Assembly (NCBI GenBank): GCA_964645535.1
Contig: CAZYCQ010000035.1
Span: 1-33,335, forward strand
Direction: 5' to 3'
Length of the DNA stretch: 33,335 nucleotides
DNA from: an uncultured archaeon
GTDB taxonomy: Archaea > Asgardarchaeota > Heimdallarchaeia > Heimdallarchaeales > Kariarchaeaceae
Position 1 is the first letter of the stretch; each line of letters begins with the position of its first letter. Below are positions 17,519 to 32,682 of the stretch, piece after piece. The notes below the pieces were generated by a model. That model saw only the letters and a list, made by a program, of their open reading frames with translations. It ran no database searches and was not told where the DNA came from. Both the position numbers and the translations under genes were made by a program.

Positions 17519-18775
17519 TTAAAGAAATTCTACCTTTGCAGAATAGTAAATCAATTCAACCCTGTTTTCACCAACAAACAGGTTGGGTGGGATACGTGTA
17601 TCGAAATATTTCCGAAAAAGCGAAAGGTGACCAAGTGAAACTTTGGTTTTCTGAGATTTTCCTTGGCTTCCAAGATAGACGAGGCTTTCAAGCTTGTTGG
17701 AAAATTGGCGTGGACCAATTTCCATATAGTTTACTCCCCTTTTCTCAAATGAACGCAAATTGGAACTTTTCGAATTTCTCAGCACCTTAAGCAACCTGTC
17801 TTTTTGGAGAGGTTTAAGTCCGAGACCAAAGAATGCGGATCCCATTCGGAAAAGATGGAATAATCCCAAGTTATAAACCTTGGAAATCCGTTGCAAATCG
17901 GAGATTGCATGAAGATACGAATGATACCTGAGAATGGGAACAAACATTTTTGTTCCAACAACCCTATTACTCACTGACGCAGAATAGAAATGTTCCCCAG
18001 ACCTTAGCCTCAGTCGGTATCTGGGGAAAAGGTTTTTCTTAGATCTTAAACAAAATTTATTTTGTCGGTCATTGCCTCGCAAAAGGCTCCTGAGGCGGGC
18101 AAACTTTCCTAAACGGATGTCTACCCCATGTATATCTGCCATTACCTGTTCAAAAGGTTTTTGCCGGAGTGATGGCTCATCAATAATAGTACATGGAAGA
18201 CCTGTTTTTGAATTAATGGTATAAGGGACACGAATGATTCTTCGAGTGTCGACAGTCACGGGATGATCAAAGTGGAAGTTTTCCATTCTTTCGACCAACT
18301 CCCGACGTTTTTCTTCGGCCTGATCCTCAATACTTTCCCCATAATCATAAGTGAAGGGATCTTGATAGACAAGATGAAATCCCTTTGAGCCAGAGAATGC
18401 ACAATATTTGAGAACCCATTCTTGATCGCGACCGAATTGATAGATCTTTCTTGTCTCTTGGAATGCCAGCTTCAAATTTTCCTTTTCATCGATATCGAAA
18501 ACCAGATCCATTTTGAAAAACTGGCTTGAATCTTTGCCTCTGATACCCACCTTGGTTGGATTCCGGAAATAGGCTACAGAATAATAAACATCAATTGGCT
18601 TGACTCGCATAAGATAATTCCACAACTCTTTGGAACTTTTCATTCTATGGTGTACCTTCTTGAAAGAGCCATTGGAGAGCACAACCCTGAAATGCCTGAA
18701 TTTGAGGAAATCAATCGGGATTTCAGGGGATGGGGTGGAGTAATATTTCCCTATTGATTCTCTATTGTATCTCAA
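17519..18775 (-). CDS. Archaeo-eukaryotic primase (PriS-like) catalytic domain with an extra C-terminal domain
   Basis: PIDVYYSVAYF, motif I DLVFDID, motif II FSGSKGFH, motif III D..VTVDTRRIIRVPYTINSKTGL; TTG start. Confidence 0.85.
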   Translation of the reverse strand: MRYNRESIGKYYSTPSPEIPIDFLKFRHFRVVLSNGSFKKVHHRMKSSKELWNYLMRVKPIDVYYSVAYFRNPTKVGIRGKDSSQFFKMDLVFDIDEKENLKLAFQETRKIYQFGRDQEWVLKYCAFSGSKGFHLVYQDPFTYDYGESIEDQAEEKRRELVERMENFHFDHPVTVDTRRIIRVPYTINSKTGLPCTIIDEPSLRQKPFEQVMADIHGVDIRLGKFARLRSLLRGNDRQNKFCLRSKKNLFPRYRLRLRSGEHFYSASVSNRVVGTKMFVPILRYHSYLHAISDLQRISKVYNLGLFHLFRMGSAFFGLGLKPLQKDRLLKVLRNSKSSNLRSFEKRGVNYMEIGPRQFSNKLESLVYLGSQGKSQKTKVSLGHLSLFRKYFDTRIPPNLFVGENRVELIYYSAKVEFL

Positions 18776-18816: not shown

Positions 18817-19260
18817 TCAAGAGGCAGAATGTTCATTATTTGCCAATTGTTCTTCCAAAAAAAACGTCTTGAGAAATTTCGTTCGATGTTTTTTGATGAA
18901 TTTTTTCAAACCCTTTTCCATTCGGTCGTCAGAAAATCTTTTTTCATTAAGATTTGAAAATAATTCATTGATTATCTGTTCCTCGGGTTCATCAGCATCC
19001 AATGGAGGTAATAATTCATAGCGTTTAAGGGCCAGATAAAATTGGACGTATCTTATCCTTTTACTTGCAATTCGATATTTTTGAGATATGTTTGTTGAAC
19101 CACAAAGTTCACAGAACTCCGCCTTTTCTGGATTTTTATGCAGGCAATCACTGCATAAGTAGTCATCAACATGTCTATCTTGAAAATTCAGTAACAAAAG
19201 GATGAGCAAAATCACAACGAGGAACCAGAATATCATTGCAATGCTGATTTCCATAAACAT
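18817..19260 (-). CDS. Membrane-anchored zinc-ribbon protein (paralogue 1)
   Basis: N-terminal TM helix; CSDC...NP....FCELCGS; shares LLPPLD and TFFLEE with the neighbouring gene. Confidence 0.82.
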   Translation of the reverse strand: MFMEISIAMIFWFLVVILLILLLLNFQDRHVDDYLCSDCLHKNPEKAEFCELCGSTNISQKYRIASKRIRYVQFYLALKRYELLPPLDADEPEEQIINELFSNLNEKRFSDDRMEKGLKKFIKKHRTKFLKTFFLEEQLANNEHSAS

Positions 19261-19294
19261 GGTAAAAGATGGGAATTAAAAAATATTCTTGATT

Positions 19295-19735
19295 TTAGTT
19301 GTGTTCCTCTAAAAAAAAGGTTCTGAAATATGTTAATGCAAATTTGTCAATATAATCTCTTAATCCTTGTTCTAAATTAGTTCCCTTGAACCCTTGTTCT
19401 TCCATGTTTCTGAATAGTTCCTCGATAAGTTCCCCATCCGTCCTGTTTTCATCAAGGGGAGGGAGAAGATGATACTTTTTTAGGTTGGAATAAAACTGTA
19501 GGTAATGCATCCGAGCCTCTTGCACGACAAATTTTCGTTCCAGTTTTGAAGAACCACACAACTCGCAAAAGGATGAACTATCAGGATTTTTATGAAGACA
19601 AGAATCACATATCAAATCATATTTATTGTCAGAGAAATTTAATTTCTCATTAGTGGATAATGAAGTGATTATGTAAGGAATTAAAAAAAGTAAAATAAGT
19701 ACCACGAAAGAGGTTAAATAAAAGATGTCACTCAT
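19295..19735 (-). CDS. Membrane-anchored zinc-ribbon protein (paralogue 2)
   Basis: N-terminal TM helix; CDSC...NP....FCELCGS; LLPPLD and TFFLEE. Confidence 0.82.
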   Translation of the reverse strand: MSDIFYLTSFVVLILLFLIPYIITSLSTNEKLNFSDNKYDLICDSCLHKNPDSSSFCELCGSSKLERKFVVQEARMHYLQFYSNLKKYHLLPPLDENRTDGELIEELFRNMEEQGFKGTNLEQGLRDYIDKFALTYFRTFFLEEHN

Positions 19736-19820: not shown

Positions 19821-21155
19821 TTAAAGATCATTTACCAAGGACACTTGGGTTTTGGTTTGGGCATTGCTTAGATCCCCCAAGGCCTTAAACCCAGAATACC
19901 AAGTTTCATGCCCATGAATTTCATGGGCAACCTCTATATGAGAGATGCCAACGGAACCAAAATATCCCCATGTGGGATCAAATGGCAACCAGCCCTCTCC
20001 TGTAAGAACTTTTGCCCATTCATGGTAGGAAACGTTCTTTTCCCGAAGATCCACAACATATCCCAAAACCCCGAATGCTGGGATTCCCATACCTCTGAGG
20101 ATGGAAATAAATAAATCCGAGAATTCACTGCAATCTCCCCTTCTATCCTTTAGAACACGGCTGGCACACCATCGTTCTCCGTTTTCCATATATTGCACCT
20201 TTTGGTTGACAAACTCAAAAGCAAGTTTAAGAACTGCTTTCAGGTCATCCGAGGTTTTTCGTATTGAGGATGAAATTGTCTTGATACCTGGGTCAGAGAA
20301 ATCCAGAAGGTCAGTCTCCCTGATCAGGTCAGGATACTTCTTTCCGACTTGGACAACGGTTGAAAGTCTTCCGAACGTTTCAGGGACAGGCTTTCGAGGT
20401 TTTTGGATTACTTCATAGATAATACGGTACTTCCATGTATTGTCATCGACCTGATCCATGACTGCTGTTGCCTCAAGATTTTTGCTTGGATCCAGAACCA
20501 CATCACATTTTCCTGAAATAATTCTGGAATAGTGATTTTCAGTCTCTTTGGGAATGAAAAACTTGACTCTTACATTCTCAAGAGAATTAGGGGATCGCAG
20601 AGTGAATTCTTCCATGAGATGAAATTTTGGGGGATCACCCCATTCAAAACGGATGGTCTTCCCTTTTCTACTGTGTCCAATAAGGGACTTCCATCCTCTT
20701 GCAGGGGTAAGAATAAAGCTTTCTCCCTGTTTTTCCCATTTACCAATACCTGAGACAAAAAGAGGTCGTGTCTTAATGAAAATGATCTCATCTAGGTTTT
20801 CCTTCCCCCAATCCATCACGAATGTGTTTTTCCATCTCCCAAATCCCTCCTCTGGGGAAAAAAGGGCAGACAGGGTAAAGGCATATTTTTGACCAAAGGA
20901 AACGGGATGCCTCAAGGAGATCGTTATCGGGGTGTGGGGGGAGATGACTTTGGAAGGGGAGACAGATATCTCGCCATTTTTATCCCTTGCTTTTGCTCCT
21001 TCAATTCTGAATGGAAAGGAAAGTTGGATTGAAGTGACAATTGAATCAGGGGTTGCATTCCGGAATGCATAGTAGTACCTCAGCAACACTCCGTTTTCAG
21101 TGAAAGCAAGTGTGGTCGAGGTGACCTTTTCAATTGTCACATACCAACTACTCAA
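19821..21155 (-). CDS. Transglutaminase-like (Cys-His-Asp) domain protein
   Basis: RGDCSEFSDLFISILRGMGIPA, YHEWAKV and GWLPFDPTWG motifs. Confidence 0.88.
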   Translation of the reverse strand: MSSWYVTIEKVTSTTLAFTENGVLLRYYYAFRNATPDSIVTSIQLSFPFRIEGAKARDKNGEISVSPSKVISPHTPITISLRHPVSFGQKYAFTLSALFSPEEGFGRWKNTFVMDWGKENLDEIIFIKTRPLFVSGIGKWEKQGESFILTPARGWKSLIGHSRKGKTIRFEWGDPPKFHLMEEFTLRSPNSLENVRVKFFIPKETENHYSRIISGKCDVVLDPSKNLEATAVMDQVDDNTWKYRIIYEVIQKPRKPVPETFGRLSTVVQVGKKYPDLIRETDLLDFSDPGIKTISSSIRKTSDDLKAVLKLAFEFVNQKVQYMENGERWCASRVLKDRRGDCSEFSDLFISILRGMGIPAFGVLGYVVDLREKNVSYHEWAKVLTGEGWLPFDPTWGYFGSVGISHIEVAHEIHGHETWYSGFKALGDLSNAQTKTQVSLVNDL

Positions 21156-21171
21156 TTGGGGATATTTGTAC

Positions 21172-21470
21172 CTATCTTATCCGTTGATACAAGGTTTGGT
21201 AAATTTTGAGGACGTCAGTTCCCCATGATGGCAATTCGATCTGAAGCTTCTCTTCAATGATTCCGCCATTGATAAGAAAAAACATTGAACGAAGATACCA
21301 ATTGCTTCAGTGGTGCTGAAATTGGAGATAACTAGATTGCCAAAACTAACCACCCCTGTTGTCCTTGCAATATTGGTAGTTTACATCGTTTCAAGAGAGC
21401 TTTCATTGTTTGTGATCACTTGGTCAGCAGGGATGTAAAGAATCGGCCGAGTTCGCAAACTTTGAACCTA
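21172..21470 (-). pseudogene. Gene remnant weakly resembling the C-terminal half of an ABC ATPase
   Basis: Broken reading SLRTRPILYIPADQ...*...LVISNFSTTEAIG, then a frameshift to FFLINGGIIEEK...; similarity judged by eye only. Confidence 0.3.
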
Positions 21471-21831
21471 CTGAAATATATACAATTGAGCTAGTCATGA
21501 CTTCACGACCCAAGGTAGTCTATGTTACTCCTGAAATGTTCATCAAGATATATTCGCCAATAGAGCTTCCCAAAGGTTGAAGGAAATAAAGCGGTCAGTA
21601 TGCTCCATGAAACAAACTTCAATGCGTTGAAGAGTATCATTGGATATAAGTGCTTTCCATAAAACCAGTTAACGAAGGCACCCTTTATGAAATACAAGAG
21701 CAGATTTTTCTTGATAAAGATCATGGATGAATGATCCCTTTTGCGATCCGATTCGGATAGAATTGGGTGATAAATATGAAATGGTTGTAAACAGAGAAAA
21801 GACAATATGTTGCCCGTTCTATGAACTCAAT

Positions 21832-22237
21832 TCCCTGAATCCGGATGGTATGCAGATCAAGACTCATCCACTAATTTTTTTCCAGTTCTAAAACCTGTTT
21901 GCCATTGATTTGAGTCAAAACCATCTTGTCAGTCGGGATGATAGGTTGTCCCACAGAAACAAAAAGCTGAAGAAAGCTTACCTTGCCGGTAACAACCTTC
22001 AAAGCCTCCTTGAAAGGATATTTCGAAATTCACTCAACCTCTAGCCATTGGATTTGGGTGAAAACTGCATTGAAAGATTGCAGACAGACTTTTTCCTGTG
22101 ATTGGGGAAGCTATGACCCCCATACTGAAAAACATTTGTTTAACTTGCCAAACAGTCTCTAAGAACTGAAAAATTTGGGTTACATCGAACTGAACGGGAA
22201 CAAGTTCACAGAACCGTTGAAATCTGGTTCTCATTGA
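21832..22237 (+). pseudogene. Leucine-rich-repeat protein pseudogene (may begin near the ATG at 21497)
   Basis: Consecutive 24-aa LRR-register units with in-frame stops: NLFAIDLSQNHL, KLKKAYLAGNNLQSL, NL*PLDLGENCIERL, then after a frameshift LPNSL*ELKNLGYIELNGNKF. Confidence 0.8.
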
Positions 22238-22342
22238 TGAACTCAGTGTCCAGAATTTTCTTGGAAGAAAAATGGACACATTAATTGGGGAATAAAATTA
22301 AGTTGACTGAATCGTACGCGATTTTCCTTGTCAATGGAAGTT

Positions 22343-23112
22343 TCAAGGATAAATTTGCGGCTTGAGCTCAATTCTTCTCCTTTTCGAATGCACATCAACC
22401 AATCTCTTGAGATCCCAATCCGTTTCTGGAATTCCTTGCATGATGACCTGCAATTCTTCAGGACTAAATGGATTTCCAGACAGGTCTCGCATCATATCCT
22501 TATTTAGATTCCTTACTGTGGCTTTATAATCGAGAAAGTCGTTGGAAATGGTCATGGCGAAAACTAGGAACCATCCAGTTTGGATCATAAACAATGTGAT
22601 GATTAGGCCGCTGGGAAAATTCGAAAAAATAAGTAGCAATGGATCGATTATAATTGGTGCAGAGGGAAAACTGACAGCTAGTATTCGAATGTACCTCGGA
22701 AATTCAAAAAACAGCCCTTCTTTTTTCAATTGCTGGTGGATATTGGACAGTTCTTCAAGGAATCTGGGATCAAAATATATGTAATAAAGTTTGTAGGGTT
22801 GGTTTTCTTTGATTACCTGCAAAAAAAAAATCCCTCATAGGGAGTCAATTGTTCCAAATCTTTCCTGTGTCTGATCAACCCTTCTTCAATAACAATTGCC
22901 CCCTTTTTGTACAAAGAAAACAGAACGCATAACAAAAATCTTTTTTTGCCTCCATACAGATATCCCCAAACCTCAAATTCATGTGGTGGAATATTCTGGA
23001 CTTTCTTGCCCATAGCAATTCCCTTGGTCAGTGCAACCAGCAGAAAGGGAGTAAAGGAGGAAAGTAGAGCAAGCAACAACAGAATCATGTCTAGGCACCA
23101 CTGACCTACCAT
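22343..23112 (-). pseudogene. Membrane protein (TIGR04222/DUF2207-like N-terminus) split by a frameshift at a T10 run; candidate immunity gene of cassette 2
   Basis: ORFs 22813-23112 (FEVWGYLYGGKKRFLLCVLFSLYKKGAI...LTPYE) and 22343-22822 meet at the A10 tract 22821-22830; one extra base fuses them. Confidence 0.65.
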
Positions 23113-23115
23113 TAT

Positions 23116-24042
23116 TTAAAAGACTTCCCACGGCATGCTTGCTATGCCATCTGGATCCTCCAAATCCGAACTCAAACCAAGGATAAACCGCAATGCACCC
23201 ATAAGCCCTGAAAATATAATTGCACCTTTTACGATCCAGTATGCAACAGTACTAGCAGCGGCTAATTCTGCACTTGCTGCCAAAGTCGCTCAAAATGAAA
23301 GTTTTAAGGCAGCGGATGCAATGAGAGCAACAAAAATTGGAAGAAAGCCCCAAAGTGAGCCTACAAATGCACCCAAGCTTACTCCATTTGTAATTAAACC
23401 TACAAAATTGGCAATAGGATCCACTAACGATAAAATAAAACTGGCAACTGTAGCTTTAATCGCATCCTTAATGAGACCATAGGCGCTAATACCCAAACTT
23501 GCAACAAGAAGAACAAAATTTAATACATTCCAAAATGGCTCTTTCCCTTTGAAGTTGGGATGTGAACCTATCAGTAACATTGGACTTACGACATTCTCAA
23601 TCAGATTCTGCAGACGCGTGAGCAATTTGTTCGCCACTACTGTAATTTGCTTAGAGTTTTTTAAAAGGCTGAGTGAAATTATGTTTGATCCAAGAATTGC
23701 ATCCACTTCTTCTCTAAAGGAAGCAACATTTTTTGCATTTCCGTCAACCAATTCCGTAATTTTTGAAGATTTACAGCCCAAGATGTAATGGCTGTTTGAC
23801 TTGGAAATGCGGATCATGTCCGCCAACACATCCCAAGAGACTGTTTTTCCGCGGTATTGAATCCCTTTCTCAGAGCTGTGTCCCACATAGATGACCGAGC
23901 CCTTGAAGGACACAATCATGTCGTATGCAGAGAAATCTACCACTCTTGCGCGGGGAAAGTTCGACTTCAGCTCCGCAATGGCGGCCATTTCCTCAAAGGA
24001 ACTTCCGAACTGCACCACAAGGGGTGATAAAGTAAAAGTCAT
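23116..24042 (-). pseudogene. Cassette-2 effector: clan CD-like protease domain plus hydrophobic C-terminus; no signal peptide; internal TGA at 23290-23292
   Basis: VIYVGHSS and HYILGCKS motifs. The frame continues 57 codons past the TGA (ATLAASAELAAAS...SSDLEDPDG...WEVF, TAA at 23116-23118), and this tail resembles the paralogue's C-terminus. Confidence 0.75.
23765..24027. repeat. Direct repeat copy 1 (263 bp, encodes the protease domain)
   Basis: Ungapped match to 25978-26240 (offset 2213); 23900-23987 is identical to 26113-26200 over 88 bp. Confidence 0.95.
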
Positions 24043-24064
24043 AAGGAACCATAGGTCATATATG

Positions 24065-25198
24065 CTACTCTAGAGCAAGAAACTGATCTGACGCACTCCA
24101 TGCAAACTCTGTCTTGTTGGTGACAAAATACACCTTCTCGGCATAGTTACAAAGCCTGTCCATATCCCCTTTCAGTTCCCATTGGAAACGGGAATGGTCG
24201 AAGACCACAAGATGGTCTGGATGCAACTGCCGGATAAGCTCCAATTCAATTGCCTCAAGCGTCCACAGGTCGACTTCTTTGACCTTTTGCTTTTGGCGGT
24301 TCGGAAACTTCCGGCAGACTTCTCCTATAATGGCCTTTTGGTTCGAACCACGGGGAATCAACAGCTCCAAATTTTGTTTCAGGGTGAATTCGGGATAGAA
24401 CCGGGCCTTTGCAAACACGAAATAAGTATGTCCCTTCCATAGTTCCTGCAACGAAATCAATTGGGCTTCTCTCCCCGGTTCTGAGTCCGGTGCATTCCGT
24501 GCCAACTCATCCAGATATTTGAGTGTCGAGACAGGAAATTCGGTTTTCCGATCCTTGAGCCTTCGAATAAGCAGAAGGTAGAGACAAGAAAGAATGGCTA
24601 TGCTTGAAAGAAGCTGTATGAGGAAATTGGAAAATGGAACAACCCAAGGAAGAACGATATCTGGGATCATAACAATCATAACAAAAAGAACAGTACTTAT
24701 GGTTGTCATAAATGATGCCCCTTCTATAGCTTTCTTCCTCTTGTCATTCGGAGCCGCAACAAACCTTACAAAAACATGAACATGTATCAGGGTATAAATT
24801 TCAACATACAGCAGAAGGCGAAGAAGAAACAACGAGGAAATAAGACTGAAATCTGGAAAAGCACCCATGGAGATCAATGGAATAAACCCGTAGAGAAAAA
24901 AGAGAAGAATTCCCATGATCTGTACCTTTTTGTAAATTGTTAGAAAATCAACGGTTCCTAAACAGAATGTGTGTATATGAAAATCATAAAGAAAATATAC
25001 TAGTTGGAAAGAAGCAAGAATTGGAATCACGGTGGCAACATAGTATGTATCATATCCATACGACATATATGTTGTTACTACCATCGTTGACAGAAAAAAA
25101 TATGAAAACAATGGATGATAAAACTTTTTTAGGGATTCACTAAATAGAATACTAAAATTGGTGAAAGCAACAAATAAGATCCAAATTGAAATGATCAT
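24065..25198 (-). CDS. Multi-pass membrane protein fused to a degenerate ABC-ATPase-like C-terminal domain; candidate immunity gene of cassette 1
   Basis: About 7 hydrophobic helices, then FYPEFTLKQNLELL...LHPDHLVVFDH...KVYFVTNK...ASDQFLAL. Confidence 0.7.
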   Translation of the reverse strand: MIISIWILFVAFTNFSILFSESLKKFYHPLFSYFFLSTMVVTTYMSYGYDTYYVATVIPILASFQLVYFLYDFHIHTFCLGTVDFLTIYKKVQIMGILLFFLYGFIPLISMGAFPDFSLISSLFLLRLLLYVEIYTLIHVHVFVRFVAAPNDKRKKAIEGASFMTTISTVLFVMIVMIPDIVLPWVVPFSNFLIQLLSSIAILSCLYLLLIRRLKDRKTEFPVSTLKYLDELARNAPDSEPGREAQLISLQELWKGHTYFVFAKARFYPEFTLKQNLELLIPRGSNQKAIIGEVCRKFPNRQKQKVKEVDLWTLEAIELELIRQLHPDHLVVFDHSRFQWELKGDMDRLCNYAEKVYFVTNKTEFAWSASDQFLALE

Positions 25199-25232
25199 AC
25201 CAACACACTCATTACAAAAAATATATGCATTT

Positions 25233-26348
25233 CTAGCAAAAGATTAAATGGAAGAAATTGAATGGATCACAGGTTACCCCATTTCCGTCGCCACCACCTA
25301 AACTTAAATCTTCGAAAAGGTAAAATGTATCATCATCGTCATGCAAATCATGTATATAGCCCTCTGCCCATAAAGCAAATGAAACAGTATCAGCGATAAG
25401 AGTGAGGTAAGTGGTAGTTTGAGCAGAGGAATATGAGAGAGCCGCCATTGCGGCCACAGATGACAGAAAAATTGCAGCTTGAATGGTAGGCATTACGCTT
25501 ACTGCAATTGAAGGACCATTATTTTCAAGAAAGTATACTGCTAATTCTGTAAATTTCCATGAAACTTCTATCCATTCATAATTCAAAATAAGCAAGTGCA
25601 AGACATGTGCAATAGCTGCAACAGTGGTTAAGAAACCATATCCCATCCACGTTTTTATTCCCAATCTTACACTACGACCAATCGTATGAAGAATAGGATC
25701 AAGCAATGCCAATGACATGAAAACAGCATAAATACTATGCCATAGCTTTTCATTAGAGCCAAAATTGTCGAGGGGCATGAAAATGCGGGGATTCGAAAAA
25801 ATGTGTTCTGCCCTTTCTTCAATCTTTTTCATCCATTGTTGAACGTTGATGCTTTGGAAGCTTGGAGTGCGGATGAAAACAAGATAGGATACCAAAGTTG
25901 CCCCCATAATTGCGTCCACAACTGTTTGAAATGCAAACACTTGTTTTCCTGAAGCTTCTGTCAGTTTTATGACTTTGGAAGATTCACAACCCAGCATGTA
26001 GTGGCTGTTGGACTTGGAAATGCGGATTATGTCCACCAACACATCCCAAGAGATTGTCTTCCCATTGTACTGGACTCCCTCATCGGAACTGTGTCCCACA
26101 TAGATGACCGGACCCTTGAAGGACACAATCATGTCGTATGCAGAGAAATCTACCACTCTTGCGCGGGGAAAGTTCGACTTCAGCTCCGCAATGGCGGCCA
26201 ATTCCTCCACGGAATCTCCAAACTGCACCACAAGGGGTGAGACGGCAGTGTTCGAAACCTCGAAGGTGTCTTCGAGCACGGGGGCAACCCCGGACATCAC
26301 TAGGATACCTATGAAGAACAAACTGGTAACATGCTTTGTTGAAAGCAT
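25233..26348 (-). CDS. Cassette-1 effector: signal peptide, clan CD (caspase/CHAT-like) protease domain and hydrophobic multi-helix C-terminus
   Basis: Start reassigned to MLSTKHVTSLFFIGILVMSGVA (signal-like). His in VIYVGHSS (26091-26093) and Cys in HYMLGCES (25986-25988), 35 residues apart. Tail ends with DLHDDDD. Confidence 0.75.
   Translation of the reverse strand: MLSTKHVTSLFFIGILVMSGVAPVLEDTFEVSNTAVSPLVVQFGDSVEELAAIAELKSNFPRARVVDFSAYDMIVSFKGPVIYVGHSSDEGVQYNGKTISWDVLVDIIRISKSNSHYMLGCESSKVIKLTEASGKQVFAFQTVVDAIMGATLVSYLVFIRTPSFQSINVQQWMKKIEERAEHIFSNPRIFMPLDNFGSNEKLWHSIYAVFMSLALLDPILHTIGRSVRLGIKTWMGYGFLTTVAAIAHVLHLLILNYEWIEVSWKFTELAVYFLENNGPSIAVSVMPTIQAAIFLSSVAAMAALSYSSAQTTTYLTLIADTVSFALWAEGYIHDLHDDDDTFYLFEDLSLGGGDGNGVTCDPFNFFHLIFC
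25978..26240. repeat. Direct repeat copy 2 (263 bp)
   Basis: Matches 23765-24027. Confidence 0.95.
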
Positions 26349-26478
26349 GAGCTGTGCAGAAAATTTAAAAAAAAAACATTTCGGTCGTGATGCAAAAAAG
26401 TGGGAAAAGAATTTAAACATGCATCGATATTCGAATTCAAGAGGATTGCAATATATTTGAGAATGTGGTTGTTTCGGG

Positions 26479-28070: not shown

Positions 28071-29039
28071 TTGATGAACCCAGTATTGGTAGCACAAGAT
28101 GTGTGGAAAGCCTACAAGAAGAAATATGCTTTGCAAGGAGCATCTTTAGAGCTTAATCGCGGAGAAATTTTAGGATTGTTGGGTCCGAATGGTGCCGGAA
28201 AAACAACCCTCATCAAAATAATGGCGACCCTCCTCACAAAAGATTCGGGAACAGTGGAAATTCTCGGATATGACTTGGACAAGCATCCTAATGAGATTAG
28301 GCATGTACTGGGTTATGTGGGACAGGACACGGAACGTTCTGCATACGCAAGACTTACAGCAAGAGAGAATCTTCAGTTTTTCGGATCCCTTAGGGGGCTA
28401 GATAGAAAAACGATCAATGAAAAGATCGATGAACTGGTCGAAAAATTCAGGTTTGAAGAGGAGATTCTTAATAAACAATTCATGCACCTTTCCGGGGGTC
28501 AAAAGCAGGCAGTCGTAATTATGCGTGCCTTGTTGCATGATCCACCCATCCTTTTCCTTGATGAACCGACCAAAGGACTGGATCCGTTTGCCGCTGCCAA
28601 TATTCGGAGATTCCTTCGAGAGTATGTGAAAGGTAAAGGCAAATCCTTGCTTCTGACATCACATATCCTTCCCGAGGTTGATGAACTTGCAGACAGATGT
28701 ACCCTTATCAGCAAAGGGAAAACCCCAGTGACTGGAACACCAACTGAACTAAAGGCAGCAGTTGGAGCCACCAACTTCATCGACATCCAAGCAACATATC
28801 TATCTGAATCCTTAGTTGATGAGGTTTTAGCACTCCCTTCTGTCATATCCTACACAACCTACAATAATGGGGAACTGTGGCATCGTTTTGGCCTTAAGGA
28901 TCTATTTAGTGGAACTCAGGATCTTTTGGCATTCATGAGACAATATGGGATTGAAGGTGGCTTCAAGCATCATGAGGTTTCCTTGGAAGATGCCTTCATC
29001 CATTTCATAGGGGAGTTCAAAGACGAGGTGGAAGCGTGA
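28071..29039 (+). CDS. ABC transporter ATP-binding protein (ABC-2/multidrug exporter type)
   Basis: GPNGAGKTT, LSGGQKQ, LFLDEPT, TSH and C-terminal SLEDAF. Confidence 0.95.
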   Translation: MMNPVLVAQDVWKAYKKKYALQGASLELNRGEILGLLGPNGAGKTTLIKIMATLLTKDSGTVEILGYDLDKHPNEIRHVLGYVGQDTERSAYARLTARENLQFFGSLRGLDRKTINEKIDELVEKFRFEEEILNKQFMHLSGGQKQAVVIMRALLHDPPILFLDEPTKGLDPFAAANIRRFLREYVKGKGKSLLLTSHILPEVDELADRCTLISKGKTPVTGTPTELKAAVGATNFIDIQATYLSESLVDEVLALPSVISYTTYNNGELWHRFGLKDLFSGTQDLLAFMRQYGIEGGFKHHEVSLEDAFIHFIGEFKDEVEA

Positions 29040-29893
29040 CAGCTACAGTAACCGTTGCAAGCCAAGCAATACGAACCTTGTCCAAGCCAGTATCTTTCTT
29101 TCATGTGGTAAAAGCGTCATTCTTGAAAGAATTCCAGATAACCTTAAGATACAGGGCGAATCTCATTGCAAATCAGATTCAATCACTCATGTTCATAGGC
29201 ATGTTTGCCTTGATGGCCACAGCTTTTGCATTTAATACAGAAACCCCACTTTCATTCGAACAGACGATAGTATTTTTCCTGTCAGGCCTCATCATCGTGT
29301 TTTTTGATGGGGTCGCATTGTGGAAACCCATCAATAGCGTAAACAGGGACCTTTACAATGGAACTCTGGAGTACCTGTTTTTCAACCCCCATTCCCGGGT
29401 GGCCTACTTTATTGGGAATATACTGACCTCTGCAACCTTTGCGTCGATTTTCATGGTTCCCTTAATGGTTGCTCTTGTATGGCTTTCTGGACTCAATTTT
29501 GTTTCATTTCTCTATGTGCTGGCAGCAATTATTTTGACGGTTAGCGTATTGGTTGCTTTTGGCGTCATGATAAGTTTGATGGCCATCATGTATAAGCAGA
29601 CAAGTAATCTGGCAGGAATACTAAATACACTTTTTACCTTCCTCAGTGGCTTTCTGTTTCCCATATCAATTCTTCCCGAGCCAATATTGGGAATTAGCCT
29701 ACTCCTTCCCTACACGTATGGTATCGATCTCATACGACACTATACCCTAGGTTCGGCATGGGAAACTTTCTTGCCATTGAACATGACTTGGGGACTCCTT
29801 GGCGGCTTTGCCGTAATCTATTGGATCATTGCGCTCTTCTTGTTAAAGAGGGTGGAAATTTTTGCCAAACAACAAGGGTTACATCTGATTTGA
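29036..29893 (+). CDS. ABC-2 type permease
   Basis: Six TM helices; GTLEYL and SGFLFPISILP...LPYTYGIDLIR; GTGA overlap with the ATPase gene. Confidence 0.9.
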   Translation: MTATVTVASQAIRTLSKPVSFFHVVKASFLKEFQITLRYRANLIANQIQSLMFIGMFALMATAFAFNTETPLSFEQTIVFFLSGLIIVFFDGVALWKPINSVNRDLYNGTLEYLFFNPHSRVAYFIGNILTSATFASIFMVPLMVALVWLSGLNFVSFLYVLAAIILTVSVLVAFGVMISLMAIMYKQTSNLAGILNTLFTFLSGFLFPISILPEPILGISLLLPYTYGIDLIRHYTLGSAWETFLPLNMTWGLLGGFAVIYWIIALFLLKRVEIFAKQQGLHLI

Positions 29894-29894
29894 G

Positions 29895-30728
29895 GTGGTA
29901 TCAATGTACATGAAAGTTTCTCCCACACGCGTTTTCTTTGCCACAATCCTCAAAGAGTTAAGAATATCCTTCAGATATCGGGCGAATTTGATCGGAGCAT
30001 TCTATCAAACCATGCTTATGGTGTTTGCCTTCTATATTTTTGGAAATGCCATTTCCTTTCGAACCTTAGATATGGTTCAAGGAACTGCACGTGCAAGTAG
30101 CGTTTTCCTCTTCTTTATTTCAGGAATACTTCTGGTCATCATGATTGACATAGCTCTTTGGATGCCCTTGAATTCTGTAAACAATGATCTCTATAACGGA
30201 ACCCTGGAATATCTCTATTCTACACCCTTTTCACGTTTCAGCTATTTTTCAGGAACCATTGTCGCCTCTGCATTCCTCAGAATGATCTTTCTTGCCCCTG
30301 TCATGGTAGGCATCGTGTTTTTCGGAGAACTGACGAATGAGATTTGGGCACTTCTCTTGGTTGTTCTTGTCACCACGGTTTCATTAATCGGTGTCGGGAT
30401 AATCATTGCATTAAGCGCAATACTCTGGAAGGAAACATCAGGAATTGTTCAGATCCTTGGAATGTTATTCCAATTTATTGCGGGAGCATTCATTCCCGTC
30501 CAATCATTCCCAATTTGGTTGAAGTGGATTGCATTTCTTTTTCCACAGACATTTGCCTTTGATCTGAGCAGGCATTACACATTTAGAGGAAATTGGCCCA
30601 CCCTTCTCCCTGTTTTTTGGGAATGGACAATCCTAGTTCTTTCGATCCCATTTTATTTCTTCCTTTCATTGAAGCTTCTTCAACGAGTGGAAAAGCATGC
30701 AAGGAACCAAGGGCTGCACCTCATCTAG
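29895..30728 (+). CDS. ABC-2 type permease (paralogue of the preceding gene)
   Basis: GTLEYL and AGAFIPVQSFP...FPQTFAFDLSR; same QGLHLI C-terminus. Confidence 0.9.
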   Translation: MVSMYMKVSPTRVFFATILKELRISFRYRANLIGAFYQTMLMVFAFYIFGNAISFRTLDMVQGTARASSVFLFFISGILLVIMIDIALWMPLNSVNNDLYNGTLEYLYSTPFSRFSYFSGTIVASAFLRMIFLAPVMVGIVFFGELTNEIWALLLVVLVTTVSLIGVGIIIALSAILWKETSGIVQILGMLFQFIAGAFIPVQSFPIWLKWIAFLFPQTFAFDLSRHYTFRGNWPTLLPVFWEWTILVLSIPFYFFLSLKLLQRVEKHARNQGLHLI

Positions 30729-31470
30729 TTAACCAGTTTTTGAACCAAGAGGGCATGACATATCCCAAATATGCCACAATTGCCGAAATTGCAACCACAA
30801 TCCATGCTAGATAGTAAAAGATGGTGTAACCTCCTCCTGTTATGACACCTGTAATTAGGTCAAGGGCAAAGAAGACAAAAGTAAGAATGACCCCAAGTCC
30901 AAAAAGACCGATGAGCCTCAAGCCAATCCTGCCAAGTCGATCAGAGGTCTTCTTTGAGACCTGAAAGGAAGATTTGATGAGAAGACCGTATGTGATTGTG
31001 GAGATAATCACGTGATAAAGGATGATTGGAGCAATTTGGGCATAAACCCCGTAATTGAAAGATATATGATTGATGAGCATGCCTATGGTCATTCCATTGA
31101 GAATCGAGAAGAAGGTCAGCCGTCGATTAATCGTGGTATCTTTTGAAAAAAGAGAGTTATAGAAACCAATGGCAAAGATATTGGCAATAGCAGTCAACAT
31201 GTAAGAAATGACAATCGTGAAATCGGTGAATGATTGGGTTCTTCGAGGAATTGAACCGAAATAGTCAAGTGCCTTTCCAGAAGCCAAAAGGAAAACAGGC
31301 AATGAGGTGAAGAAAAGATTCAGATAGAGATAGGCCAAAGCCTTATTTCTTCGTTCAAGATATTTTTGAAATACGCGTACTGTCACATAAAATGTGATTA
31401 TTGCAACCGTGAACTCAGTAAGGACTGCCATCAGTGGAATGTCATCCCTTGTCTCAAACAATCCATTCAT
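30721..31470 (-). CDS. 7TM membrane protein (paralogue 2)
   Basis: Start reassigned to MNGLFETRDDIP (ATGA overlap with the upstream gene's stop); seven hydrophobic helices; KYLERR and LGYVMPSWFK. Confidence 0.8.
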   Translation of the reverse strand: MNGLFETRDDIPLMAVLTEFTVAIITFYVTVRVFQKYLERRNKALAYLYLNLFFTSLPVFLLASGKALDYFGSIPRRTQSFTDFTIVISYMLTAIANIFAIGFYNSLFSKDTTINRRLTFFSILNGMTIGMLINHISFNYGVYAQIAPIILYHVIISTITYGLLIKSSFQVSKKTSDRLGRIGLRLIGLFGLGVILTFVFFALDLITGVITGGGYTIFYYLAWIVVAISAIVAYLGYVMPSWFKNWLTR

Positions 31471-32219
31471 GAAGACCGACCTCCCTCGATACGCCGTTTC
31501 AACCATTCCGGCATCAGATATCCAAGTGATCCAAAAATGGTTCCGATAGCTGCAGAGATCCACGCAAGATAATATTCTAGGTTGAATGTTGTTCCAGCCG
31601 TTATGATTTTGAAATTATCCAACCCGAAAAAAATGAAGACCAGATTGAGGAAAACGCCAAACAGACCAATAAACCTGAAACCCCACCTTGCAACATCGTC
31701 TTTTGTCCTATTCGATGTTTTGAAGGATTGGTAAGCCAATAATGAATTGACAAAGAACGAAAGAAGAACGTGGTAGACCACAATAGGAAAAATCCTTGAA
31801 TACACTCCAAATTCGAAAGAGTTAACGTCCATAATCCAGCCCACAGTAATTCCATTCAAGGTGGCAAAGACAATCATTCGCCATTCCTTGTTGGACAAAT
31901 ATACAAATTCAACGAAGTTATAAAGAAAGGCATTTGCAATTGCCGAAAAGGCATAGGCAAGATTTATGGCAAATCCAGAATAGCTGATGACGGATTGCGG
32001 GACATCATTGAAAAAATCCAGGTATTTGCCGGCCGCACTGACCAATATCCCCAACCCGTAGAACAAAATAGCCCCGCTCAAATAAAATGCGGCAGGACGA
32101 CGTCGTTCCAAATATTTTCGGATTATAACAACAGTCAATACGATAAGCTCTATCGCCACTATGGTCTCCAAATAAAGGGAATAAATAGGGATATCATTTC
32201 GGACTATGTTTTCAAGCAT
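31467..32219 (-). CDS. 7TM membrane protein (paralogue 1)
   Basis: Seven hydrophobic helices; KYLERR, GKYLDF, YYLAW and LGYLMPEWLK. Confidence 0.8.
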   Translation of the reverse strand: MLENIVRNDIPIYSLYLETIVAIELIVLTVVIIRKYLERRRPAAFYLSGAILFYGLGILVSAAGKYLDFFNDVPQSVISYSGFAINLAYAFSAIANAFLYNFVEFVYLSNKEWRMIVFATLNGITVGWIMDVNSFEFGVYSRIFPIVVYHVLLSFFVNSLLAYQSFKTSNRTKDDVARWGFRFIGLFGVFLNLVFIFFGLDNFKIITAGTTFNLEYYLAWISAAIGTIFGSLGYLMPEWLKRRIEGGRSS

Positions 32220-32223
32220 TGAA

Positions 32224-32682
32224 TCACCAGAGGCTTTCCTTGATTCGCCTTACTGCCTCTTCATCTTCTTTGCTTTTAACTTCATTAATTATAGAGATGA
32301 TTTTCTGCTCAAGTTTTTCGTACTCCGATTCAGGGATGAGTGAGATTTCACCTTTTGCCTTATTAAGGAAAAAGAAGATTTCGGTTTCAATTTTGCTGAA
32401 CAGTGTCTCAATTACGGCTTCCTCAGTGGAATCATTCATGTCGGTTATCACTGCAATGGAAAATTCCTTGTTCCTATAAAGATGGATGGTCTTAAGTTCA
32501 GTGTTGAATTTTCGAAGTTTCCCCGCCTTGATTTCTTCCATAAAGCTCATTATTGCAGAAAGAATGCCACTGAAAAGATAAGTATCATCCTTGGATGTGG
32601 AGGTTGCTTTCCGATGTAAGGGATCAGTCACACTGAGAATCGGGATACCATTGTTGTTGAGAACATAAATTGCAGCCACCAC
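32224..32682 (-). CDS. Longin/roadblock-fold protein (Asgard type)
   Basis: IYVLNNNGIPILS...LFSGILSAIMSFMEEI..GKLRKF...IAVITD pattern. Confidence 0.75.
   Translation of the reverse strand: MVAAIYVLNNNGIPILSVTDPLHRKATSTSKDDTYLFSGILSAIMSFMEEIKAGKLRKFNTELKTIHLYRNKEFSIAVITDMNDSTEEAVIETLFSKIETEIFFFLNKAKGEISLIPESEYEKLEQKIISIINEVKSKEDEEAVRRIKESLW

Follow-up and report, generated by a model that had tools for sequence, protein, structure and literature searches.

A four-gene array in the genome of an uncultured Asgard archaeon (Heimdallarchaeia, family Kariarchaeaceae) probably encodes a polymorphic, Sec-exported membrane toxin and its cognate membrane immunity protein, with a probability of roughly 0.6 assigned to this reading. 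The array lies on the minus strand at positions 22343-26348 of a 33,335-nucleotide (nt) stretch, hereafter the window (GenBank assembly GCA_964645535.1, contig CAZYCQ010000035.1), and comprises effector 1, partner 1, effector 2 and partner 2 in a single orientation with intergenic gaps of 34, 22 and 3 nt. A first-pass annotation made from the letters alone had described this co-oriented, tightly packed arrangement, and its reading frames for effector 1 (26348-25233, 371 amino acids, aa) and partner 1 (25198-24065, 377 aa) are both open. The motifs VIYVGHSS and LGC(E/K)SS are present in both effectors as annotated, with His and Cys spaced exactly 35 residues apart (H86 and C121 in effector 1), and the two partners are indeed unrelated to each other. 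DNA comparison placed the effector repeat far above chance (80% over 300 nt; 88% over 267 nt), but the shared domain had been called near-identical and its amino acid identity is only 68%.

The domain profile matched 109 of 301 genomes of the phylum with up to 12 matches per genome, and the nine domain copies in the window genome carry different tails. The variable C-termini, co-varying downstream genes and orphan modules proposed earlier are seen across the homologues, so that the two refuting conditions named in the first-pass annotation for the fold and for uniform C-termini did not apply. All three genomic criteria of a polymorphic toxin system are thus found in the family by comparative analysis, with toxicity predicted. 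The first cassette consists of the following features.

26349..26460, minus strand: conserved 5' leader and probable promoter, in which a T-run lies some 30 nt ahead of the ATG (DNA alignment of nine copies; blastn)
25233..26348, minus strand: effector 1, intact, 371 aa, with signal peptide, minimal clan CD domain, helical linker, Pro-Leu junction and four-helix tail
26271..26348, minus strand: predicted Sec-type signal peptide, about aa 1-26
25860..26240, minus strand: minimal caspase/CHAT/CPD-like domain, aa 37-163 (invariant dyad, model and fold matches)
26093-26091 and 25988-25986, minus strand: catalytic-type residues His86 and Cys121 (alignment)
25770..25778, minus strand: Met-Pro-Leu193 junction, predicted self-cleavage site with Leu193 as P1 (Leu conservation, lone beta-bridges)
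25236..25769, minus strand: variable tail of effector 1, aa 194-371, helical class, with Glu200, Asp334-x-x-Asp337 and a 30-aa extension
24065..25198, minus strand: partner 1, intact, 377 aa, candidate immunity protein with six predicted membrane helices and a C-terminal half (aa 223-377)

The predicted protease domain and its junction

A search of 1.84 billion representatives with the domain returned 119 proteins, and His86 and Cys121 are the sole invariant residues in 87 aligned sequences, in the contexts IxVGHG and LxCxS. In the domain model (predicted local distance difference test, pLDDT, 92.7), four strands and three helices make up the core and the His precedes a small beta insert; the His and Cys follow strands 46-49 and 80-84. 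Foldseek ranked the MARTX CPD first (E 1.6e-04) and SAVED-CHAT next, while VIA-align placed SAVED-CHAT first (Z 11.2, root-mean-square deviation 4.1, 149 aligned) and legumain at Z 8.8; structural neighbours in the Atlas include CHAT and C14 clusters. Flavodoxin-like folds reached Z 8-9.4 in VIA-align, near legumain, so the fold alone is not decisive for clan CD. The definition of the clan includes a His and then a Cys at the C-terminal ends of adjacent core strands (PMC4357240). Because the predicted fold and the invariant dyad together agree with this definition, the clan CD membership suggested by the first-pass annotation is upheld, and the modelled domain is assigned to the clan CD cysteine peptidase type with predicted proteolytic activity.

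Profile comparisons place the family in neither C80 nor PF12770. No Peptidase_C80 match was obtained at E 0.1 among the 87 aligned members, and none of the 87 matched PF12770 (CHAT); Peptidase_C25 gave weak matches in three members (best E 0.004). The domain profile found nothing significant among PDB sequences (8yja at E 1.4), and Pfam yielded nothing above cut-off for the four window proteins. The CPDs of MARTX and TcdA/B toxins (MEROPS C80; PDB 3eeb, 3gcd, 8yjc), the top Foldseek matches, likewise carry His and Cys at strand ends, and the residues preceding His and Cys in the Asgard family are Gly and hydrophobic or small, as in the Leu pocket of the MARTX CPD (PMC4357240), with Leu predicted at P1. 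In contrast to C80, the Asgard domain spans about 125 rather than about 200 aa, its His-Cys spacing is 35 rather than 49 residues, the identity is 16-19%, and its predicted site lies C-terminal of the domain whereas C80 cuts N-terminally first. It also has no beta-flap or evident inositol hexakisphosphate (InsP6) site in its secondary structure, the model showing a short loop and a helix after the fifth strand with no hairpin. CHAT proteases (SAVED-CHAT 8tl0, Csx29; PF12770) and legumain (C13) share the GHG and LxC motifs and the fold, but the CHAT examples are activated by a sensor in the cytoplasm and act on other proteins, which they cut, whereas the Asgard domain is predicted to be exported.

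About 30 residues past the core, the junction has Leu in 60 of 74 ungapped rows, and a Gly/Pro linker often comes next; this conserved Pro-Leu junction would fit a Leu-specific self-cleavage site. Asp145 and Pro192 (residues 110 and 157 in model numbering) each form a lone beta-bridge in the model, and their pairing with each other would set Leu193 in the P1 register. The putative signal peptide of effector 1 was assigned by sequence comparison with paralogues, and an N-terminal hydrophobic stretch occurs in 59 of 65 full-length homologues. Since effector 1 has Glu at position -1, where most paralogues have Ala, its signal peptide may remain uncut as an anchor. Distant copies of the domain are located near the N-terminus of proteins of 900-1300 aa (L025:7734-10457; P0034, P0061, P0112), and the domain may also serve large surface proteins. 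Another member, P0030 (G001:C347), has an internal deletion that fuses its first 73 residues straight to the tail, with the catalytic residues gone.

Blastn matches between family copies continue upstream of the ATG, consistent with region 26349..26460 being their promoter. At L025:2511-2620, the family promoter and first signal-peptide codons precede an unrelated secreted protein of 466 aa, subtilisin-like by eye.

Tails, partners and their co-variation

The tails of the two effectors were originally described as strongly diverged, and they are only about 16% identical; they are nevertheless homologous, as one helical-tail profile matches both. When built without either window tail, this profile scored them at 43.0 and 34.8 bits, against 8.5 for the best of 200 shuffles. 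The helical family accounts for 58 of 88 tails, is about 150 residues long, and features a near-invariant Glu at its start and a DxxD at its end. The tail model of an intact effector 2 orthologue consists of four long helices (pLDDT 82.7), and fold searches with it retrieved no convincing neighbour (Foldseek best E 7.2; VIA best Z 7.8, generic bundles; Atlas template-modelling (TM) score at most 0.41), which is no proof of a new fold. The other 30 tails are a mixed group, in which a hydrophobic hairpin frequently occupies the centre and is flanked by aromatic-rich segments, and one of this non-helical class matches glycine-zipper families. Altogether, 35 tail types were distinguished among 62 full domains, and 7 of the 36 tail matches listed contain a stop, one or two of which may be natural ends.

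A few members additionally carry Ig, fn3 or C-terminal Hint-like domains. The Hint-like domain follows the tail in P0015 (L130:2275-3810), P0040 and P0095, the reverse of the usual pre-toxin Hint order, and its Pfam matches in P0015 and P0040 are weak (E 0.008 and 0.005). P0015 sits among transposases and has a partner of 306 aa.

The next gene, read at 52 loci, nearly always encodes a membrane protein, of 90-377 aa, and these partners stem from many unrelated families, none matching a known immunity family above cut-off; one of 44 partners matches TIGR01218 at E 0.002, possibly for compositional reasons. In partner 1, an AT-rich six-helix half precedes a GC-richer half that resembles an ABC ATPase in shape (TM score about 0.5 by target, from a low-confidence Atlas model), with Walker A, signature motif and catalytic Glu absent from the sequence and no Pfam match. 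Partner 2 scored 35.3 bits (E 9.3e-09) against TIGR04222, under the 43-bit cut-off, and is on this comparison to be regarded only as a distant relative of TIGR04222/DUF2207_C membrane proteins.

Partner similarity correlated with tail similarity in a Mantel test (0.23, p 0.001) and not with domain similarity (0.06, p 0.052); the partial tests gave 0.223 (p 0.001) for the tail and 0.022 (p 0.26) for the domain, p-values that are overstated because the genomes are related. Among pairs with close domains, related partners accompanied related tails in 16 of 17 cases and unrelated tails in 1 of 66, a contrast that lies within close kin. With distant domains and related tails, the partners were related in 17 of 26 pairs. 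These comparisons indicate that the choice of downstream gene is tied to the tail and not to the protease. For one cognate tail and partner from genome G239, complex prediction yielded no verdict (score 0.04, mark 0.32) and was used neither way.

Twelve shallow copies in the domain tree, all from a single genus, bear nine tail types, and some tail types occur on distant domains, an incongruence that counts as moderate evidence. In a 23-kb array of genome G003, a single full gene is accompanied by at least four orphans, every one of which is paired with a separate membrane gene; the orphans begin past the catalytic His, their truncation falling at profile positions 56-74. This array, G001:C137, a site in G003 near 768 kb and the window all have orphan cassettes with a 5' homology arm, and both G003 and G239 have spare partner paralogues with no full effector next to them (in tandem in G239). 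The G003 array also holds three paralogous membrane partners of 280 aa (L021:6691-7539, L021:18097-18939, L022:13504-14352), at least one of which has no recognised tail gene before it.

Displacement and decay of the second cassette

The second cassette and the DNA behind it comprise three features.

23116..24042, minus strand: effector 2, displaced orphan with His55 and Cys90 kept and the tail cut by TGA at 23292-23290 (comparison with relatives)
22343..23112, minus strand: partner 2, frameshifted at a T10 run (22830-22821); likely start 23088
21289..22300, no strand assigned: decayed fragments of an LRR-like gene and a CLC-like gene piece (gene names by eye)

Effector 2 had been read as open over 24042-23116, but the TGA ends the protein at 250 aa. 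This codon is Trp (TGG) in the intact orthologue of the sister genome G001 and TAG in G003; with TGG, TGA and TAG at the same position, stop-codon recoding was rejected. The TGA is unchanged in a 1075-nt contig of an independent assembly, probably from the same sample, and the independent assembly bridges the junction of partner 1 and effector 2 in two runs. The gene annotated for partner 2 (23112-22343) is likewise split, by a T10 run that is T8 in G001. The independent assembly leaves the T run uncovered, and the frameshift may be an assembly slip. What had been taken for a spare cassette is, with its TGA, its T10 frameshift and its lack of a signal peptide, a broken one.

The intact counterpart in G001 retains a signal peptide, Trp at the stop-codon site and T8 at the run. 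In G003 the tail type of effector 2 occurs in an orphan that has TAG at this codon and precedes a homologue of partner 2. Partner 2 is the cognate of this tail type in three genomes. Together with the decayed DNA behind it, cassette 2 shows 83% identity to G001, with matches to G001:C128 of 82.8% (2442 nt) and 78% (262 nt), so that the fragments appear to have travelled with the cassette from a G001-like donor. Synonymous divergence (dS) between the window genome (G000) and G001 is 0.36-0.71 in cassette 2 but saturated in four housekeeping genes, a difference indicative of recent movement of the cassette between genomes. The ratio of nonsynonymous to synonymous divergence (dN/dS) is 0.10-0.23 across domain, tail and partner, and the effector 2 tail, 89% identical to the intact G001 copy, has a dN/dS of 0.14, pointing to purifying selection. 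Isolated fragments of a partner 2 homologue and a helical tail lie elsewhere in the window genome (G000:C54:6658-6870 and G000:C38:734-931).

As annotated, effector 2 starts near the repeat boundary and is devoid of a signal peptide: homology begins at 24027, five codons past the ATG, which is the first codon of the mature domain. Such a boundary is the expected trace of a crossover in the constant region, by which a new tail and partner take over the promoter and signal peptide. It is proposed that effector 1 and partner 1 now occupy the signal peptide and promoter and that cassette 2 was displaced at 24027 and later decayed. The tail of effector 1 (GC 0.387 versus 0.484 in the constant part) has no close relative in 400 genomes, and the only homologue found for partner 1 is a deletion remnant in G001, in which a family domain is fused to its last 29 residues. 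The pairing of this tail with partner 1 is accordingly argued from the family-level evidence and from the remnant, which indicates that the partner 1 pair was once present in G001 too.

DNA of the locus was found in hot-spring metagenomes of one study, and the genomes of the same genus are metagenome-assembled genomes of Ca. Heimdallarchaeota. Two genes from effector 1, on the opposite strand, an ABC ATPase and two ABC-2 permeases are encoded at 28071-30728. A functional tie of this operon to the cassettes was not supported, on account of its strand, its distance of two genes and blastp against partner 1 (E 0.25), and it was not seen to recur in the family loci read, where it was not counted systematically. 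Further along, one operon at 30721-32682 encodes a longin-like protein of 152 aa together with two membrane proteins that are multi-helix paralogues, all lacking Pfam matches at E 0.001. A CRISPR-like array of four 37-nt repeats, the last degenerate, and three unique spacers lies at the contig end (33043-33306), with no cas gene recognised nearby. On the other side of the cassettes are a 418-aa protein (17519-18775) that weakly matches a primase small subunit (E 0.005) and continues into a long additional C-terminus, and two tandem paralogous proteins of 147 aa (18817-19735), each with an N-terminal membrane helix and a zinc ribbon, adjoining a transglutaminase-like gene (19821-21155).

Proposed mechanism, rival explanations and known systems

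The favoured reading supposes that the Sec signal peptide exports the precursor, leaving the protease domain outside and the hydrophobic tail in or at the membrane. The His-Cys domain would then cleave the polypeptide of which it is part, directly behind the Leu in the Pro-Leu junction, and release the tail of about 150 aa, which may disturb the membranes of non-kin, most likely through an ion leak involving the conserved Glu and DxxD. Delivery would require contact, protrusions or vesicles rather than a soluble peptide, because the tails look likely to stay in the membrane. The next gene, whose coupling to the tail is seen, would supply a membrane protein that neutralises that particular tail. 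Recombination in the constant 5' region, as seen in the genomes, swaps tail and partner together and leaves displaced orphans behind.

Several observations weigh against this reading. Its weak point is that the tails are likely held in the producer's membrane, with no evident route to a target: at least two helices of transmembrane strength, on a rough scale of our own, were counted in 52 of the 58 helical tails. A net acidic charge in 46 of the 58 is unlike typical cationic bacteriocins, and the freely secreted archaeocin envisaged in the first-pass annotation is doubtful, since most tails are acidic and their two to four helices are apt to stop in the producer membrane. Most tails are alleles of one family instead of many unrelated toxin folds, and the partners, often large and some with extra domains, would fit receptors too. 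Only one of four approximately unbiased tests of tail/domain incongruence rejected grouping by tail at 0.05, and the relatedness of the genomes tells against the Mantel tests as well. Cleavage, toxicity and protection are predicted properties.

The observations on tail retention and partner size also suit an unlikely alternative, allele-specific recognition or signalling, in which the tail, once self-cleaved, acts as a membrane ligand with the partner as its cognate receptor; such a pair would serve in kin recognition, adhesion or the control of fusion, and nothing would be killed. Co-variation and swapping of tail and partner would be expected here too, and a single tail scaffold with a near-invariant Glu and DxxD and variable surfaces, tails probably retained in the membrane and the cytoplasmic-type ABC-like domain of partner 1 all agree with it. 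Some members moreover end in a weakly matched Hint-like domain after the tail (P0015, P0040), an arrangement that recalls Hedgehog-type processing. The partners, however, come from many unrelated families with no common output domain, and the spare partners and frequent tail loss are better explained by protection from a harmful product. Tail-partner co-variation also bears on the suggestion that the tail is an anchor or scaffold for a protease that cuts the partner or surface proteins in trans. An intact dyad, helices of transmembrane strength, the possibly uncleaved signal anchor of effector 1 and related domains in long surface proteins would allow it, but the partner tracks the tail and not the protease (1 of 66 for close domains with unrelated tails), the orphans retain tail and partner while lacking the His and signal peptide, and the conserved Leu junction lies at a fixed distance past the domain. 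An anchored protease is accordingly considered improbable.

Membrane toxicity need not be directed at neighbours. In a selfish addiction cassette, the tail would harm the membrane of its own cell after loss of the partner, and the pair would persist without acting on others; scattered two-gene insertions among housekeeping genes or transposases, the recent interspecies transfer, the many disarmed copies and tails likely kept in the producer's membrane are compatible with it. Orphan-tip arrays with spare partners are, to our knowledge, not typical of addiction modules. Arrays of this kind with a recombination arm are instead typical of competition loci (PMC3482391), and the addiction explanation is given a low probability. 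That the pair has no function and represents neutral debris of repeated duplication is very improbable: cassette 2 and most G001 copies are broken, but the G001 assembly is of low coverage and some breaks may be errors, the dyad is invariant in a family carried by 109 of 301 genomes, and the purifying selection on domain, tail and partner (dN/dS 0.10-0.23) largely refutes this view.

Among known systems, the exported toxin reading has its closest parallel in the Sec-exported polymorphic toxins of Zhang et al. 2012 (PMC3482391), which combine a signal peptide, an internal caspase-like releasing peptidase and a C-terminal toxin. The Asgard genes share with them the signal peptide, the caspase-like domain just before a variable C-terminal domain, the adjacent cognate gene, the orphan cassettes and the tandem spare partners. 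In contrast, polymorphic toxin systems were described in that paper as generally absent from most archaeal lineages (PMC3482391), whereas this family is archaeal and phylum-wide. Its precursor of about 350 aa has no stalk or repeats, its tails are membrane helices of unnamed families and not known enzymes, its partners match no known immunity family above cut-off, and it often occurs as dispersed single pairs. TspA of Staphylococcus, a membrane-depolarising helical toxin that acts from outside and is neutralised by the adjacent polytopic membrane protein TsaI, demonstrates that a toxin of this type can work alongside membrane immunity and paralogues in tandem (10.1101/443630). The Asgard family, with its function predicted, resembles it in the polymorphic helical C-terminus, the adjacent membrane protein and the tandem paralogues, but TspA uses Type VII export and no releasing protease, and the two show no homology beyond the possibly compositional TIGR01218 match of one partner.

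Exported antagonists are also known in archaea, and a comparable role is predicted here. Halocin C8 is cut from a precursor by a mechanism described as unknown, is exported by Tat and carries its immunity in the same chain (10.64898/2026.07.27.741052), while sulfolobicins are vesicle-associated and encoded in a two-gene operon, both genes being needed for killing (PMC10117752). A cultured Asgard archaeon forms vesicles and tubes (PMC10117752). No Pfam match ties halocin C8 or sulfolobicins to the Asgard family. No published description of the family was found in a comparison outside which the main archaeal survey, Makarova et al. 2019, falls, and a 2026 review of Asgard archaea (PMC12993045) mentions neither toxins nor antagonism nor caspases.

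The family described here, which may bear on competition or recognition between Asgard archaea and their neighbours, occurs in about a third of the sampled genomes and joins an unusually small, predicted-exported clan CD domain to unnamed families of tails and partners. As the genes are short and occur in natural cognate and non-cognate pairs, their predicted activities could be tested in laboratory hosts without Asgard culture.

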